Of a DNA stretch of 64,000 nucleotides, positions 4,066 through 36,514 are shown piece by piece; position 1 is the stretch's first letter, and each line of letters starts with the position of its first letter. Position numbers and translations under genes: made by a program. The notes below the pieces were generated by a model. The model was not told the DNA's origin and searched no databases. It worked only from the letters and a program-made list of their open reading frames with translations. Origin of the DNA: Escherichia coli (GTDB lineage: Bacteria > Pseudomonadota > Gammaproteobacteria > Enterobacterales > Enterobacteriaceae); assembly GCF_003334815.1 (NCBI RefSeq), contig NZ_QOWO01000017.1; one strand, given 5' to 3'.

Positions 4066-4142
4066 TGGTGCATCCGGGAGGATTCGAACCTCCGACCGCT
4101 CGGTTCGTAGCCGAGTACTCTATCCAGCTGAGCTACGGATGC
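4066..4142 (-). tRNA. argV: tRNA-Arg (anticodon ACG)
   Basis: Reverse complement reads GCATCCGTAGCTCAGCTGGATAGAGTACTCGGCTACGAACCGAGCGGTCGGAGGTTCGAATCCTCCCGGATGCACCA. Confidence 0.95.
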
Positions 4143-4205
4143 ATCGGGAAAACTTATTCTACTGCTGATATTGATACCGCTACTAAAGCCATATCAATTA
4201 AGAGA

Positions 4206-4223
4206 TGGTGCATCCGGGAGGAT
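4206..4223 (-). repeat. Second tRNA-Arg 3'-end fragment inside the inter-tRNA repeat unit
   Basis: tggtgcatccgggaggat matches the tRNA-Arg 3' end; the ~275 bp unit is repeated. Confidence 0.7.
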
Positions 4224-4340
4224 TACTCGCCTTGCGGCTCGCCCTTCGGGCCGTTGCTAAAGCAACGTTATCATCCCTAGTGCCTGCGGTTAATACCGCT
4301 ATCTCTTCGATACCTTCATTGCTGAAGGTTACGGAGAATA

Positions 4341-4417
4341 TGGTGCATCCGGGAGGATTCGAACCTCCGACCGCTCGGTTCGTAGCCGAGTACTCTATCC
4401 AGCTGAGCTACGGATGC
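4341..4417 (-). tRNA. argV: tRNA-Arg (anticodon ACG), second copy
   Basis: Identical 77 nt sequence to the copy at 4066..4142. Confidence 0.95.
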
Positions 4418-4420
4418 AAA

Positions 4421-4513
4421 TGGCGGTGAGGCGGGGATTCGAACCCCGGATGCAGCTTTTGACCGCATACTCCCTTAGCAGGGGAGCGCCTTCAGCCTCT
4501 CGGCCACCTCACC
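4421..4513 (-). tRNA. serV: tRNA-Ser (anticodon GCU)
   Basis: Reverse complement reads GGTGAGGTGGCCGAGAGGCTGAAGGCGCTCCCCTGCTAAGGGAGTATGCGGTCAAAAGCTGCATCCGGGGTTCGAATCCCCGCCTCACCGCCA, a long-variable-arm Ser tRNA. Confidence 0.95.
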
Positions 4514-5248: not shown

Positions 5249-7879
5249 TTATTGCAATTTCGCGCTGACCCAGCCTTTCACACTGGCTAACGCTGCAGGT
5301 AAGGCCGCAGCATCCGTACCACCGGCTTGCGCCATGTCAGGACGTCCACCACCCTTGCCGCCCACCTGCTGAGCGACCATACCAATCAGTTCCCCTGCTT
5401 TCACACGATCTGTGACGTCCTTAGATACGCCTGCAATCAGAGAAACCTTACCTTCGACTACCGTTGCCAGCACGATAATTGTCGACCCCAGCTGATTTTT
5501 TAAATCGTCAACCATGGTACGCAACATTTTCGGCTCAACACCGCTAAGCTCGCTAACCAACAGCTTAACACCATTAACATCAATTGCCTTACTGGAAAGA
5601 TTTGCGCTCTCCTGTGCGGCAGCTTGTTCTTTAAGCTGTTGTAACTCTTTTTCCAGCTGACGCGTACGTTCCAGTACTGAGCGCACTTTATCAGCCAGAT
5701 TATTGCTATCGCCTTTCAGCAGATGCGCGACTTCGCTTAAGCGATCGCTGTCTGCATGAACGGTGGCGATAGCACCTTCTCCGGTTACCGCTTCGATACG
5801 ACGAACGCCTGCAGCAGTACCCGATTCAGAGATGATGCGGAACAGACCAATATCACCAGTGCGGCTGGCGTGAGTACCGCCACACAACTCGGTAGAGAAA
5901 TCGCCCATGCTCAGCACGCGTACGCGCTCATCATACTTCTCGCCGAACAGCGCCATCGCACCTTTCGCTTTCGCCGCTTCGAGATCCATGATGTTGGTTT
6001 CGATCGGCAAATTGCGACGAATCTGTGTGTTCACCAGGTCTTCGACCGCACGAATCTCTTCTGGTTTCATCGCTTCGTTGTGTGAGAAGTCGAAGCGCAG
6101 CACCTTGTCGTTAACCAGTGAACCTTTCTGCGATACATGAGTACCCAGAACCTGGCGCAGCGCAGCGTGCATCAGGTGCGTTGCGGAGTGATTCAGACGA
6201 ATACGGGCGCGACGAGCCTCATCAACATCAGCCTGCACCGCGTCGCCCACTTTCAGAGAACCCGCAGCAAGTTTACCGATGTGACCAATCGCCTGGCCGT
6301 ATTTCTGCGTATCTTCCACCGCAAAGGAGAAGTTAGCGCCTTTCAGTTCGCCTTTATCGCCAACCTGACCGCCGGATTCCGCATAGAATGGCGTTTGATC
6401 CAGCACGACCACAGCTTCCTGGCCTGCATTGATGGCATCAACCGCTTTACCATCAACAAACAGCGCAGTCACTTTGCCGTTCAGTTCCAGATGGTCATAG
6501 CCTTTAAATTCAGATGCACTGTCAACACGGATCATTGCGTTGTAATCGGCACCAAAGCCGCTGGCTTCGCGCGCGCGACGACGCTGCTCTTCCATTGCAG
6601 CTTCAAAACCAGCTTCGTCAACTTTGATGTTGCGCTCACGACAAACATCAGCCGTCAGGTCAACCGGGAAGCCATAGGTGTCGTACAGACGGAAAGCAGT
6701 TTCACCATCCAGCGTATCACCAGAAAGTTTTGCCAGCTCTTCATCCAGCAACGCCAGACCGCGCTCCAGAGTACGAGCAAACTGCTCTTCTTCAGTCTTC
6801 AGCACCTGCTCAACCTGCGCCTGCTGGCGTTTCAGGTCTTCACCCGCAGAGCCCATAACGTCGATCAGCGGACCAACCAGTTTGTAGAAGAAGGTTTCTT
6901 TCGCGCCGAGCATATTACCGTGACGCACTGCGCGACGAATGATACGACGCAGTACATAACCACGGTTTTCATTGGACGGCATTACGCCATCCGCGATCAG
7001 GAACGCACAAGAACGAATGTGGTCAGCGATTACGCGCAGCGATTTATTGCTCAGATCGGTTGCGCCAGTGACTTTCGCTACCGCCTGGATCAGCGTGCGG
7101 AACAGGTCGATGTCATAGTTAGAGTTAACGTGTTGCAGCACCGCAGCAATACGCTCCAGACCCATACCGGTATCTACAGACGGCTTCGGCAGCGGTTCCA
7201 TCGTGCCATCGGCCTGGCGGTTGAACTGCATGAAGACGATGTTCCAGATCTCAATGTAGCGGTCGCCGTCTTCTTCCGGGCTTCCCGGAGGGCCCCCCCA
7301 AATGTGGTCGCCGTGATCGTAGAAGATTTCGGTGCACGGGCCGCACGGACCAGTGTCACCCATCTGCCAGAAGTTGTCAGATGCGTATGGCGCACCTTTG
7401 TTATCGCCGATGCGAATAATACGTTCGCGCGGGATCCCTACTTCTTTTTCCCAGATTTCGTAGGCTTCGTCGTCGCTTTCATAGACGGTAACCCACAGAC
7501 GCTCTTTCGGCAGGGCAAACCATTTTTCGCTGGTCAGCAGTTCCCATGCAAACTGAATGGCATCGTGTTTGAAATAGTCGCCGAAGCTGAAGTTGCCCAG
7601 CATTTCGAAGAAGGTATGGTGACGCGCGGTGTAACCGACGTTTTCCAGGTCGTTGTGTTTACCACCCGCACGCACGCAGCGTTGGGAAGTGGTAGCGCGG
7701 GAATAATTACGCTTGTCGAGCCCAAGGAACACATCCTTGAACTGGTTCATCCCGGCGTTGGTAAACAACAAAGTTGGGTCGTTATGGGGTACCAGGGAGC
7801 TGCTGGCAACTACCTGATGTCCCTTACTATGGAAAAAGTCGAGAAACGCCTGACGGATCTCAGCGGTGCTCTTGCTCAT
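5249..7879 (-). CDS. alaS: Alanine--tRNA ligase
   Basis: 876 aa translation recognised as AlaRS (class II motifs, C-terminal editing domain). Confidence 0.97.
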
Positions 7880-15688: not shown

Positions 15689-16646
15689 AGCACTACTGAA
15701 CGCGGGACGTCAGACGTTAATGCTGGAGTTGCAGGAAGCAAGCCGTTTACCGGAACGTCTGGGCGATGATTTTGTTCGCGCCGCCAATATCATCCTGCAC
15801 TGTGAAGGCAAAGTGGTGGTTTCGGGAATTGGCAAATCGGGCCACATTGGTAAGAAAATCGCCGCAACGCTTGCCAGTACCGGCACTCCGGCTTTTTTTG
15901 TCCATCCGGCAGAAGCGCTGCACGGCGATCTGGGGATGATCGAAAGCCGCGATGTGATGCTGTTTATCTCTTACTCCGGTGGCGCGAAGGAACTGGATCT
16001 GATTATTCCGCGTCTGGAAGATAAATCTATCGCGCTGCTGGCGATGACCGGCAAACCGACGTCACCGCTGGGCCTGGCGGCAAAAGCGGTGCTGGATATC
16101 TCCGTAGAACGCGAAGCCTGCCCGATGCACCTTGCGCCGACCTCCAGCACCGTCAATACCCTGATGATGGGTGACGCGCTGGCGATGGCGGTCATGCAGG
16201 CGCGCGGATTTAATGAAGAAGATTTTGCCCGCTCCCACCCAGCCGGGGCACTGGGCGCTCGCTTGCTGAATAAAGTGCATCATCTGATGCGCCGTGACGA
16301 TGCCATCCCACAGGTGGCGTTAACCGCCAGCGTGATGGATGCGATGCTGGAACTCAGCCGCACCGGTCTGGGGCTGGTGGCGGTATGTGACGCTCAACAA
16401 CAGGTACAAGGCGTCTTTACCGACGGCGATTTACGTCGCTGGCTGGTTGGCGGCGGCGCACTCACCACGCCAGTCAATGAAGCGATGACGGTCGGCGGCA
16501 CCACGTTGCAATCGCAAAGTCGCGCCATCGACGCCAAAGAGATCCTGATGAAGCGCAAAATCACTGCCGCACCGGTGGTGGATGAAAACGGCAAACTCAC
16601 CGGCGCAATAAACCTGCAGGATTTCTATCAGGCCGGGATTATTTAA
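15681..16646 (+). CDS. gutQ: D-arabinose 5-phosphate isomerase GutQ (SIS plus CBS domains)
   Basis: 321 aa translation recognised as GutQ (KdsD paralogue). Confidence 0.93.
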
Positions 16647-18157
16647 TCCTTCAATCCCAGACGTTTCGCCAGCCGATGCAGGTTGGCGACGTCGGTTTCC
16701 AGCATCCGCGCGCAGGCAGCCCAGTTGTGATGATTTTGTGCCAGTGCCTGACGAATAGTTTCACGCTGGAACGCTTCTGTCGCTTCACGCAGGTTTTGCT
16801 TAACAACGGGCACCGCCGCCACTTCTGGCGTCGGCAACGTCACCTCAGGAAAAGCAAAATGTTGCGCCTCAAGAATCACTTCATCGCCGCTGCGGGTGGC
16901 TCTCGCCAGAACTACCGCCCGATGAATAGCATGTTCCAGTTCGCGCACGTTTCCCGGAAAACTGTAGTGTTGCAGTAAATTTCGCGCTCCGGCACTTAAT
17001 ACCACGCGGGAGAGCCCCTGCCGCAAACGACACTGCTCGCAGAAATACCCCGCCAGCAGAATGACATCATCGCCCCGCTCACGCAGCGGCGGCACCGAAA
17101 GTGGAAACACGCTCAGGCGATGAAACAAATCGGCGCGGAATCGCCCTGCCAGCACCTCTTCGCGTAAATCGCGGTTAGTCGCCGCCAGCACGCGCACATC
17201 GACCCGCAAACAACGGTCATCGCCAACGCGCTGAATATCGCCATACTGCAACACCCTCAGCAGCTTGGCCTGCAATGCCAACGACAACTCGCCGATCTCA
17301 TCCAGAAACAGCGTGCCGTTATCCGCCATTTCAAACTTCCCGCTGCGATTACTGATAGCGCCAGTAAACGCTCCTTTCACATGCCCGAACAACTCACTTT
17401 CCGCCACACTTTCCGGCAGTGCAGCACAGTTGAGATAGACCAGCGGATTCACCGCCCGTGGCGAGGCTTCATGAATCGCTTTCGCCACCAGCTCCTTACC
17501 GGTTCCAGTCTCACCGCTGATCAGGACGTTGAGATCGGACGCCGCCACAATCTCAATCTCTTTTTTCAGTTGCGTCATGCCAGGGGACAAGCCAATCATC
17601 TGCGTCTGTTTCACCGCTTCAAACGGCGTGGCATCGCCTGGCAGCATATTCTGGCTTTCCAGTTGTTCAATCAGCAACGCATTGCTTAACGCTCCCGCCG
17701 CCAGCGCAGCAATCAGCCGTAGCTCTTCGTCGCTGAAAACATCGAACTGATCGGGCTGCATCCCGTCGAGCGTCAGTGCGCCGATCAGGTTTTGCCCGGC
17801 AAACAATGGCAGACCAACGCAGGCGTGAACCTTCAGACTCTCCTGCCCAGGAATCAAACCGTCATAGGGATCGGGCAATTCGCTGTCTGCGGGAAAGCGC
17901 ACCACATCCCCGGCGCGGGCAATCGCTTCCAGCCGTGGATGCCCTTCCAGCGCAAAGCGTCTACCGAGTACATCCTTTGCCAGACCGTCGATGGCAAGCG
18001 GAATAAACTGCCGCGAATCGTAACGTAGCAACGCAGACGCATCGCACTCCAGCACCTGACGTAGCGTGGTGATCAGGCGCTGAAAACGATCCTGGTGACC
18101 AATCCCACGCTGCAATTCGATGGCGATATTCGCCAGCACATCAACGGAAAAACTCAT
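16643..18157 (-). CDS. norR: Sigma-54-dependent anaerobic nitric oxide reductase regulator NorR
   Basis: GAF domain, AAA+ sigma-54 activator domain ([14 protein letters not shown]) and C-terminal HTH; start set at [12 protein letters not shown] (ORF track extends 25 codons upstream). Confidence 0.93.
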
Positions 18158-18169
18158 CTTTGCCTCACT

Positions 18170-18225
18170 GTCAATTTGACTATAGATATTGTCATATCGA
18201 CCATTTGATTGATAGTCATTTTGAC
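18170..18225. promoter_or_regulatory. Three NorR binding sites (GT-N7-AC) forming the norV upstream activating sequence
   Basis: gtcaatttgac (18170..18180), gtcatatcgac (18191..18201), gtcattttgac (18215..18225). Confidence 0.8.
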
Positions 18226-18280
18226 TACTCATTAATGGGCATAATTTTATTTATAGAGTAAAAACAATCAGATAAAAAAC

Positions 18281-18296
18281 TGGCACGCAATCTGCA
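18281..18296 (+). promoter_or_regulatory. Sigma-54 (-24/-12) promoter of norVW
   Basis: CTGGCACGCAATCTGCA has GG-N10-GC spacing, about 50 bp upstream of the norV ATG. Confidence 0.85.
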
Positions 18297-18343
18297 ATTA
18301 GCAAGACATCTTTTTAGAACACGCTGAATAAATTGAGGTTGCT

Positions 18344-19783
18344 ATGTCTATTGTGGTGAAAAATAACATTCATTGGGTTGGTCAACGTGACTGGGAAGTG
18401 CGTGATTTTCACGGCACGGAATATAAAACGCTGCGCGGCAGCAGCTACAATAGCTACCTCATCCGCGAAGAAAAAAACGTGCTGATCGACACCGTCGACC
18501 ATAAATTCAGCCGCGAATTTGTGCAGAACCTGCGTAATGAAATCGATCTGGCGGATATCGATTACATCGTGATTAACCATGCAGAAGAGGACCACGCTGG
18601 GGCGCTGACCGAACTGATGGCACAAATTCCCGATACGCCGATCTACTGTACTGCCAACGCTATCGACTCGATAAATGGTCATCACCATCATCCGGAGTGG
18701 AATTTTAATGTGGTGAAAACTGGCGACACGCTGGATATCGGCAACGGCAAACAGCTCATTTTTGTCGAAACACCAATGCTGCACTGGCCGGACAGCATGA
18801 TGACTTACCTGACAGGCGACGCGGTGCTGTTCAGTAACGATGCTTTCGGTCAGCACTACTGTGACGAGCATCTGTTCAACGATGAAGTGGATCAGACGGA
18901 GCTTTTCGAGCAGTGCCAGCGTTACTACGCCAATATCCTGACGCCGTTCAGCCGCCTGGTAACGCCGAAAATTACCGAGATCCTGGGCTTTAACTTACCA
19001 GTCGATATGATAGCGACCTCCCACGGCGTGGTCTGGCGCGATAACCCGACGCAAATTGTCGAGCTGTACCTGAAATGGGCGGCTGATTATCAGGAAGACA
19101 GAATCACCATTTTCTACGACACCATGTCGAATAACACCCGCATGATGGCTGACGCTATCGCCCAGGGGATTGCGGAAACCGACCCACGCGTGGCGGTGAA
19201 AATTTTCAACGTCGCCCGAAGCGATAAAAACGAAATCCTGACCAATGTCTTCCGCTCAAAAGGCGTGCTGGTCGGCACTTCGACGATGAATAACGTGATG
19301 ATGCCGAAAATCGCCGGGCTGGTGGAGGAGATGACTGGTTTACGCTTCCGTAACAAACGCGCCAGTGCTTTCGGCTCTCACGGCTGGAGCGGCGGTGCGG
19401 TGGATCGTCTTTCCACGCGCCTGCAGGATGCGGGTTTCGAAATGTCGCTCAGCCTGAAAGCCAAATGGCGACCAGACCAGGACGCTCTGGAGTTATGCCG
19501 TGAACACGGTCGCGAAATCGCCCGTCAGTGGGCGCTCGCGCCGCTGCCGCAGAGCACGGTGAATACGGTAGTTAAAGAAGAAACCTCTGCCGCCACGACG
19601 GCTGACCTCGGCCCACGGATGCAGTGCAGCGTCTGCCGGTGGATTTACGATCCGGCAAAAGGCGAGCCAATGCAGGACGTTGCACCAGGAACGCCGTGGA
19701 GTGAAGTCACGGATAACTTCCTGTGCCCGGAATGCTCCCTCGGCAAAGACGTCTTTGACGAACTGGCATCGGAGGCAAAATGA
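18344..19783 (+). CDS. norV: Anaerobic nitric oxide reductase flavorubredoxin
   Basis: 479 aa; metallo-beta-lactamase-like di-iron domain, flavodoxin domain and C-terminal rubredoxin CxxC pairs. Confidence 0.95.
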
Positions 19784-20913
19784 GCAACGGCATTGTGATC
19801 ATTGGTTCGGGCTTCGCCGCCCGACAACTGGTGAAAAATATTCGCAAACAGGACGCCACTATTCCATTAACCTTGATTGCCGCCGACAGCATAGATGAGT
19901 ACAACAAACCTGACCTCAGCCATGTTATCAGTCAGGGGCAACGTGCCGACGACCTTACCCGCCAGACGGCGGGTGAATTTGCCGAGCAGTTTAATCTGCG
20001 CCTGTTTCCGCACACCTGGGTGACGGATATCGATGCCGAAGCCCATGTGGTGAAAAGCCAGAATAATCAGTGGCAATACGACAAGTTAGTGCTGGCAACC
20101 GGTGCCAGCGCCTTTGTCCCGCCTGTGCCTGGGCGTGAGTTAATGCTGACGTTAAATAGTCAGCAAGAGTATCGCGCCTGTGAAACGCAACTGCGGGATG
20201 CCCGACGCGTGTTGATTGTTGGCGGTGGTTTGATTGGTAGCGAACTGGCGATGGATTTTTGTCGTGCAGGCAAAGCGGTCACGCTAATCGACAACGCTGC
20301 CAGTATTCTGGCGTCGTTAATGCCACCGGAAGTAAGCAGCCGCTTGCAGCATCGGTTGACGGAGATGGGTGTTCATCTGCTGTTGAAATCTCAGTTGCAG
20401 GGGCTGGAAAAAACGGATTCTGGCATTCTGGCAACGCTGGACCGCCAGCGTAGCATCGAAGTGGATGCGGTAATTGCCGCCACCGGACTGCGCCCGGAAA
20501 CCGCCCTGGCACGACGCGCCGGGCTGACGATTAATCGCGGCGTTTGCGTCGATAGTTATCTGCAAACCAGTAATACCGATATTTACGCGCTGGGCGATTG
20601 CGCGGAAATTAACGGTCAGGTATTGCCGTTCCTCCAGCCGATTCAACTTAGCGCGATGGTGCTGGCAAAAAATCTTCTCGGCAATAACACGCCGCTGAAA
20701 CTCCCGGCGATGCTGGTGAAAATCAAAACGCCGGAATTACCGCTGCATCTGGCAGGCGAAACCCAGCGTCAGGATTTACGCTGGCAAATTAATACCGAAC
20801 GCCAGGGAATGGTGGCGCGCGGCGTTGACGATGCTGACCAGCTTCGCGCCTTTGTGGTCAGTGAGGATCGGATGAAAGAGGCATTTGGATTGTTGAAAAC
20901 ATTGCCGATGTAG
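19780..20913 (+). CDS. norW: NADH:flavorubredoxin reductase
   Basis: 377 aa; FAD/NAD binding motif GSGFAARQ; ATGA overlap with norV. Confidence 0.95.
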
Positions 20914-35841: not shown

Positions 35842-36303
35842 TCATGCTGCCGGGCTTTGTCCCTTTACCAGTTGGCTTAAATTCACCGGCACATTGTTTT
35901 CAATAGCGGTGTATAAGCTGTCGTAAACGCCAGCGATTTTTTCGAGATAGTGTTCCAGAACCTGTTCGCGATCGCGGATGTTGACCTTGCCATCAATCAT
36001 GCCGTCAATGCTCAGTTGCGCCTGCGCAATCCGCTGTTTGTCTTCGCCATCTTTTGTTTCGACGTAATACTCGATGGTGTGGCTGTTAAAGCCATCCGCC
36101 AGGGTGACGTAAATGCGAAAATGTTCAAAAAGGACGAAACAGAGTTCTTTGTCCGGCGCGCAGCTCATGGCGTGATGCAGGCGCGCTTTCGATAACGTGA
36201 TCCCCTGAACCAGCGAATTGCAGTAGATGTGCCACTGGTCCTGTAGGCGACGATGCCGCTGTGCGATGTAATCGGCTTTCTCGCTTATTTCCCAAATAGT
36301 CAT
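35842..36303 (-). CDS. hycA: Formate hydrogenlyase regulatory protein HycA
   Basis: 153 aa translation recognised as HycA. Confidence 0.92.
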   Translation of the reverse strand: MTIWEISEKADYIAQRHRRLQDQWHIYCNSLVQGITLSKARLHHAMSCAPDKELCFVLFEHFRIYVTLADGFNSHTIEYYVETKDGEDKQRIAQAQLSIDGMIDGKVNIRDREQVLEHYLEKIAGVYDSLYTAIENNVPVNLSQLVKGQSPAA

Positions 36304-36338: not shown

Positions 36339-36358
36339 AAGCATTTTTTGTGCCAACT
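36339..36358 (-). promoter_or_regulatory. Sigma-54 promoter of the hyc operon
   Basis: Minus strand reads TTGGCACAAAAAATGCTT with GG-N10-GC spacing. Confidence 0.75.
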
Positions 36359-36394: not shown

Positions 36395-36445
36395 AGATGA
36401 ATTTCGTCGCCGTGTCGACGTGTCATTTCGACATCATCGACATTA
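36395..36445. promoter_or_regulatory. Probable FhlA upstream activating region shared by hyc and hyp
   Basis: Clustered GTCGAC/CATCGACA repeats (tgtcgacgtgtcatttcgacatcatcgaca) midway between the divergent sigma-54 promoters. Confidence 0.55.
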
Positions 36446-36466: not shown

Positions 36467-36483
36467 ACTGGCACAATTATTGC
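36467..36483 (+). promoter_or_regulatory. Sigma-54 promoter of the hyp operon
   Basis: CTGGCACAATTATTGCT with GG-N10-GC spacing, about 35 bp upstream of hypA. Confidence 0.75.
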
Positions 36484-36514
36484 TTGTAGCTGGCAATAGT
36501 TAATGGGAGGCGAT

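Follow-up and report, generated by a model that had tools for sequence, protein, structure and literature searches.

Between the divergently transcribed genes norR and norV of Escherichia coli lies a short spacer in which a first-pass annotation, made from the letters of a 64,000-nucleotide stretch of DNA (hereafter the window), had recognised three GT-N7-AC enhancer sites followed by a sigma-54 promoter. The locus raises the questions (i) whether this spacer is the NorR-dependent control region that its motifs suggest; (ii) whether these motifs stand out from what chance would produce; and (iii) whether the enhancer array, which lies against the start codon of norR and upstream of the promoter of norV, belongs to the one gene or to the other.

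The window is E. coli chromosome. A 701-bp query covering the spacer had matches of at least 95% identity in every one of the 5426 complete E. coli genomes, and the RefSeq annotation of the locus in these genomes is norR / norV throughout. The gene order is gutM-srlR-gutQ-norR <-> norV-norW-hypF, and the three nor genes, all annotated by RefSeq, score above the cut-offs of their NCBIfam equivalog models: NorR (16643-18157, minus strand, 504 aa) with 822 bits against a cut-off of 476 (NF003451), matching over its full length; the flavorubredoxin NO reductase NorV (18344-19783, plus strand, 479 aa, intact) with 1043 bits against 711 (NF003954); and the NADH:flavorubredoxin reductase NorW (19780-20913, plus strand, 377 aa) with 685 bits against 392 (NF003437). 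By the equivalog matches of norV and norW, the target operon norVW encodes an NO-detoxifying enzyme, while the norR product is a GAF / AAA+ / helix-turn-helix sigma-54 enhancer-binding protein and NO sensor.

The two divergent genes are separated by 186 bp (18158-18343), with the norV ATG at 18344 on the plus strand and the norR ATG beginning at 18157 on the minus strand (CAT at 18155-18157 on the plus strand), a position that is conserved in 75 related loci. The longest norR open reading frame (16643-18232, minus strand, 529 aa) has 25 more codons and would start with an ATG at 18232, so that all three NorR sites would be read as coding sequence; we rejected this start, as the annotated and conserved one is at 18157 (504 aa). 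A GAGG on the minus strand at 18163-18166 (CCTC on the plus strand), part of a GCCTCA conserved in the alignment of relatives described below, probably serves as the norR ribosome-binding site. This Shine-Dalgarno sequence falls within the 12 bp, AGTGAGGCAAAG on the norR strand, that separate the norR ATG from the nearest NorR site.

Direct reading and a script both place the three GT-N7-AC 11-mers where the first-pass annotation had put them, at 18170, 18191 and 18215. They read GTCAATTTGAC (18170-18180), GTCATATCGAC (18191-18201) and GTCATTTTGAC (18215-18225), are given here without a strand, and share the extended form GTCA-N4-GAC. The site adjoining norR begins, as had been claimed, 13 positions away from the A in the start codon of norR, and 12 bp intervene. 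That site had been called the first; the published numbering runs in the opposite direction, from the promoter, so that the promoter-distal 18170-18180 is site 3, 18191-18201 is site 2, and the promoter-proximal 18215-18225 is site 1. We use the published numbering throughout. Centre to centre, site 3 lies 21 bp from site 2, and site 2 lies 24 bp from site 1; a further 62 bp separate the centre of site 1 and the -24 GG of the promoter.

As a motif, the bare GT-N7-AC core has no significance, because its 197 occurrences in the 64-kb window compare with about 195 expected, and because three cores within 56 bp were seen in 84% of simulated 64-kb sequences; the window itself contains two further triple clusters, at 6629 and 7629. 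The extended form GTC-N5-GAC occurs only 16 times in the 64 kb, and its single triple cluster is the NorR array. Such a triple was found in none of 300 simulated windows and in none of 20,000 simulated spacers having the A+T-rich composition of the spacer itself. The longer form GTCA-N4-GAC has 18 matches in the window, compared with 6.5 expected.

Agreement with published reagents is complete. Tucker et al. 2010 (PMC2831303) used a 66-bp oligonucleotide, 'NorR123', that covers the NorR-binding region and corresponds to window positions 18165-18230 with 0 mismatches; the published 21-bp site 1 oligonucleotide is identical to 18211-18231, and all four PCR primers of that study (PMC2831303) map exactly to the window. 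As the published footprint limits fit as well, the comparison with known NorR sites that had been proposed as a check disclosed no mismatch. Together with the equivalog matches of NorR, NorV and NorW and with the RefSeq annotation, the identity of these oligonucleotides upholds the identification of the region as the norR-norV control region, and the opinion that it confirms annotation and is not novel was also correct, this architecture having already been published for E. coli. In the published work, changing GT-N7-AC to GG-N7-CC at any single site abolishes norV-lacZ induction (PMC2831303), and in a genome-wide SELEX screen with NorR the norR/norV spacer was the only binding target (PMC8249747). 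To judge from sequence identity, then, NorR binding at these sites, and the need for each of them in activation, are published for the very DNA found in the window.

For the comparison with relatives, we used 80 loci collected with NorV as anchor (NorV identity 88-100%) from Enterobacterales contigs, one genome per species. The alignment comprised 70 distinct spacers from Enterobacteriaceae, and the set used for distances to the norV promoter comprised 80 sequences (79 loci and the window). Where norR is divergent (75 loci), three GT-N7-AC sites are present in the spacer, with the exceptions of a Xenorhabdus locus (L077), in which the norR-proximal site is GTCATTTTGAT, and a Yersinia locus (L074), which has degenerate half-sites at two sites. 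The half-sites are nearly invariant in the alignment: at site 1, GTC and GAC are both present in 70/70 spacers; at site 2, GTC is present in 70/70, as are the A and C of GAC, and its G in 69/70; at site 3, GTC and the GA of GAC are present in 70/70 and the final C in 69/70. Averaged over columns, conservation amounts to 0.93-0.96 within the sites, to 0.65-0.73 in the intervening spacers, and to 0.59 over 18226-18262. The 21/24-bp centre-to-centre spacing is kept in 67 of 69 spacers, and two E. coli strains in which the 66-mer varies carry their changes only in spacer DNA, between the sites or following them.

Some of these loci are unusual in other respects. In E. coli strain 107, from cattle (L083), the control region is intact except for changes in spacer DNA outside the three 11-mers, and norV is annotated with 1236 nt, compared with 1440 nt in the window; the short gene agrees with an in-frame deletion of norV that has been described in some O157 strains. 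Two loci labelled Xenorhabdus japonica (L077) and Chryseobacterium sp. (L070) have Enterobacter/Citrobacter-like norR-norV loci. Their NorV proteins are 88-90% identical to that of E. coli. Such loci would not be expected in the organisms named and point to contamination or mislabelling.

The sigma-54 promoter of norVW, TGGCACGCAATCTGCA, lies on the plus strand at 18281-18296, with GG at 18282-18283 and GC at 18294-18295 (GG-N10-GC), the first G being 62 nt from the norV ATG. The GG-N10-GC element and its coordinates, which fit a 16-mer (TGGCAC...TGCA), were correctly given by the first-pass annotation; the 17-mer quoted with them, CTGGCACGCAATCTGCA, carries an extra leading C at 18280 and spans 18280-18296. 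Considered as a motif alone, the element is not significant, since the sigma-54 pattern with at most one mismatch has 3 matches in the window and 2.3 are expected; what supports it is where it lies, how well it is conserved and what has been published. In all 80 loci, a TGGCAY precedes the norV ATG by 54-67 nt, and genome-wide SELEX with the RpoN holoenzyme gave a peak in the norR/norV spacer (PMC8743547).

Over the -12 region, equivalent to E. coli 18292-18296, the relatives are of two types. In 36 of the 80 loci (Escherichia, Salmonella, Citrobacter and Kluyvera) the element is of the CTGCA type, while in the other 44 it is TTGAT, TTGTA or similar, the canonical -12 C being replaced by A or T; the latter type was found in Klebsiella, Enterobacter, Raoultella, Kosakonia, Atlantibacter and others (e.g., L007, L014, L017, L047). 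The two types seem to follow genus lines in these sequences, the canonical C being absent from the element in about half of the genera. A strict GG-N10-GC regular expression failed in about half of the relatives; promoter loss was rejected as an explanation, inspection having revealed a real -12 variant.

A likely transcription start for norV follows from the published footprint. NorR-protected guanines were reported to span -137 to -84 in methylation protection experiments (PMC2831303), and the guanines at the outer edges of the array that lie 53 bp apart are 18170/18223 (top strand) or 18172/18225 (bottom strand). Fitting the published limits to these outer guanines, we infer that norV transcription starts on the plus strand at 18307 (top-strand guanines) or 18309 (bottom-strand guanines). 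A start at 18307 sets the GG and GC exactly at -25/-24 and -13/-12.

Binding of IHF has been placed in the interval from the enhancers to the transcription start (PMC2831303), and the region 18226-18279, given without a strand, is indeed A+T-rich (80% A+T). No match to the IHF consensus WATCAANNNNTTR with at most one mismatch was found at 18226-18280, between site 1 and the promoter of E. coli, and the position of IHF in this species therefore rests on the literature; over the whole window, the scan gave 55 matches compared with 46 expected and is uninformative for E. coli. Conservation in the 70-spacer alignment reaches 0.84 in an IHF-like block at 18263-18279, as against 0.59 for 18226-18262, and rises again over the promoter itself. 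A perfect WATCAANNNNTTR is present in this block, just upstream of -24, in 24 of the 70 relatives, E. coli not being among them.

An Rfam scan of the whole window found no RNA family in or near the norR-norV spacer. Elsewhere in the window, the MicA sRNA lies at 1084-1155, and 4066-4513 (minus strand) holds just two tRNA-Arg(ACG) genes and a tRNA-Ser(GCT) gene. As K-12 has four tandem tRNA-Arg copies at the corresponding locus, this strain may carry a contracted tRNA array.

Whether the array is anchored to norV or to norR can be read from distances in the relatives. From the centre of site 1 to the first G of the -24 GG, the distance is 60-63 bp in all 80 sequences, and array and norV occur together in all 80 loci. 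Site 3 lies at a far less constant distance from the norR ATG. In 61 of 69 spacers this distance is 13 nt; a few have 15-17 nt, Buttiauxella, Cedecea and some Enterobacter have 43-46 nt, and Yersinia massiliensis has 198 nt. In four loci, three of them Atlantibacter-type (L019, L073, L075) and one from Franconibacter (L069), no NorR homologue was detected within the 1.8-2.5 kb of upstream flank; there, the upstream gene is co-directional and ends just before the array, and the three sites at 21/24 spacing, together with the sigma-54 element, are kept upstream of norV. Because the distance to the promoter is fixed and the array is kept without an adjacent norR, comparison of these sequences indicates that the array belongs to the norV promoter and that its abutment on norR reflects a compact divergent spacer. 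By these data, adjacency to norR is not needed for maintenance of the array.

These distances also bear on the suggestion, made when the sites were first noticed, that NorR autoregulates its own divergent promoter. The suggestion is plausible, also in the form of negative autoregulation, and is partly supported, but the geometry does not show it; the array is set relative to the norV promoter. Site 3 being separated from the ATG by just 12 bp, a norR promoter would have to lie within or beyond the array, and the hexamer that activates norV, bound within 12 bp of the start codon, would sit across or downstream of such a promoter and could lower norR transcription by occlusion or as a roadblock. 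A standard sigma-70 scan of the minus strand of the spacer found no norR promoter. A relaxed scan gave two candidates, CTGATT-16-TAAAAT (18271 to 18244) and ATCAAA-19-TATAGT (18209 to 18179), both on the minus strand, and we claim neither, as each is weak, matching at 8/12 positions; the single plus-strand match, TTGTCA-16-GATAGT at 18189-18216, is at chance level. About threefold negative autoregulation of norR in E. coli is reportedly to be found in norR-lacZ work by Hutchings and co-workers from 2002. Our search of the literature on E. coli norR autoregulation returned secondary statements only, such as that NorR regulates both norR and norVW (PMC8249747). In Vibrio cholerae, repression by NorR of the norR promoter, with or without NO, has been shown, norR expression being higher in a regulator-null background (PMC3345576).

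Three further readings of the array were weighed against its role in norV activation. According to one, the sites are mainly an autorepression operator of norR, placed against its start codon, and activation of norV is secondary. The 13-nt offset of site 3 in 61 of 69 related spacers and the self-repression by V. cholerae NorR agree with this reading; it is nevertheless very improbable, since it is the distance to the norV -24 element that is fixed (60-63 bp in 80/80 sequences), while that to norR varies (13-17, 43-46 or 198 nt), since Atlantibacter and Franconibacter keep the full 21/24 array with no norR within 1.8-2.5 kb, and since every site is essential for norV activation. We consider it possible, though on balance doubtful, that a wider proposal holds as a whole, namely that selection acts in its own right on the nearly constant 13-nt distance of site 3 from the norR start codon, that a pre-assembled, NO-independent hexamer occludes or roadblocks norR transcription and so sets the NorR copy number, and that the two -12 types tune the stability of the norV closed complex.

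That the three matches are functionless products of chance in an A+T-rich spacer would be a reasonable view of the bare core, which occurs at chance frequency and of which triples are common in random sequence. The same view has a negligible probability once the extended form is considered, as simulation never produced a GTC-N5-GAC triple (0/300 and 0/20,000); it is refuted by conservation, GTC and GAC being near-invariant across 70 relatives while the spacers vary, and by published mutagenesis, the sequence being identical to DNA that has been footprinted and mutated. We give just as little credence to recognition of the sites by another regulator in place of NorR, such as the paralogous GAF-type FhlA, which is also encoded in the window. 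An 11-mer of the same core, GTCATTTCGAC, does lie in the hycA-hypA spacer at 36422-36432, beside sigma-54 promoters; against this stand the footprints obtained on the sites with purified NorR, the selection of the norR/norV spacer only in NorR genomic SELEX, and the joint presence of array and norV in all 80 loci.

Related motifs elsewhere in the window can be described briefly. The 11-mer GTCATTTCGAC fits both GT-N7-AC and GTCA-N4-GAC and probably lies within the FhlA upstream activating region. In the same spacer, TGGCACAAAAAATGCT at 36341-36356 (minus strand) points toward hycA and TGGCACAATTATTGCT at 36469-36484 (plus strand) points toward hypA; we take these two to be the FhlA-dependent sigma-54 promoters of the formate hydrogenlyase genes. 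A further sigma-54-like sequence, TGGCACATCTACTGCA (one mismatch; 36219-36234, minus strand), is located inside the hycA coding sequence, facing hycB, and could be a chance match or an intragenic sigma-54 site. Genomic SELEX gave an RpoN peak in the hycA-hypA spacer (PMC8743547), and no NorR peak is reported there (PMC8249747).

Close to the array, a fourth perfect palindrome of the form GTCA-N3-TGAC, GTCAACGTGAC, is present inside norV at 18381-18391, 38 nt past the ATG. In relatives, its commonest form is GCCAACGTGAC; as the T occupies the wobble position of a Gly codon, just 18 of 70 retain the GT..AC core. We rejected this palindrome as an additional NorR site, as its GT depends on that wobble base and is so rarely kept, and it is probably a chance occurrence. 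The published 266-bp fragment cuts it off, and it lies inside the 362-bp footprinting fragment, for which no protection of it is reported.

Taken together, the evidence leaves us almost certain that this region controls the E. coli norVW operon in response to NO and works by the published mechanism. By that mechanism, three NorR dimers use their C-terminal helix-turn-helix domains to bind the three inverted repeats within 18170-18225, and DNA binding drives the assembly of a single NorR hexamer, an AAA+ ring that is poised on the DNA even without NO and is reported to be stable and heparin-resistant in its absence. Bending of the A+T-rich segment 18226-18279 by IHF would let the hexamer meet sigma-54 RNA polymerase, which is bound as a closed complex at TGGCAC-N5-CTGCA (18281-18296). 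Binding of NO to the non-haem iron of the GAF domain then lifts the repression of the AAA+ domain, and ATP hydrolysis remodels the closed complex to an open one, so that norVW would be transcribed from about 18307.

For this exact sequence, three-site binding, the requirement for all three sites, enhancer-dependent ATPase activity and ring formation have all been published, and the published open-complex assays were run with IHF. Our analysis adds the identity of the window with the published reagents, the statistical distinctness of the triple, and the strong conservation across relatives of sites, spacing and promoter distance. We found nothing that speaks against the main mechanism. The molecular details of the feature are already fully known, and our comparative results refine a well-characterised system and leave its understanding unchanged; their value is one of quality control, in that a textbook sigma-54 enhancer and promoter region was recognised from sequence and the annotation of the window holds.

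Of the systems with which this region can be compared, the norVW promoter of E. coli K-12 (Tucker et al. 2004, 2010; Justino et al. 2005) is the same in everything tested: the 66-bp fragment, the 21-mer, the primers, the sigma-54 element and the norR <-> norVW order are shared, and no difference was found. Tandem GT-N7-AC inverted repeats upstream of a sigma-54 promoter are likewise described for norA/norB in Ralstonia eutropha, for hmpA and nnrS in Vibrio cholerae, and for hmp in Pseudomonas, and these promoters usually adjoin norR, as in E. coli; their targets differ, being a haem-type NO reductase, a flavohaemoglobin and NnrS. By an analogy made by the authors of the NorR work, TyrR boxes too offer three consecutive dimer sites that scaffold a hexamer, although the TyrR hexamer represses sigma-70 promoters, whereas NorR activates a sigma-54 promoter via ATP hydrolysis. 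At glnAp2, NtrC resembles NorR in that upstream enhancers tether an AAA+ activator that reaches the sigma-54 polymerase by DNA looping. For NtrC, however, two sites suffice and assembly is under the control of phosphorylation, while NorR strictly requires all three sites, is pre-assembled on them, and is controlled at the surface that contacts sigma-54.
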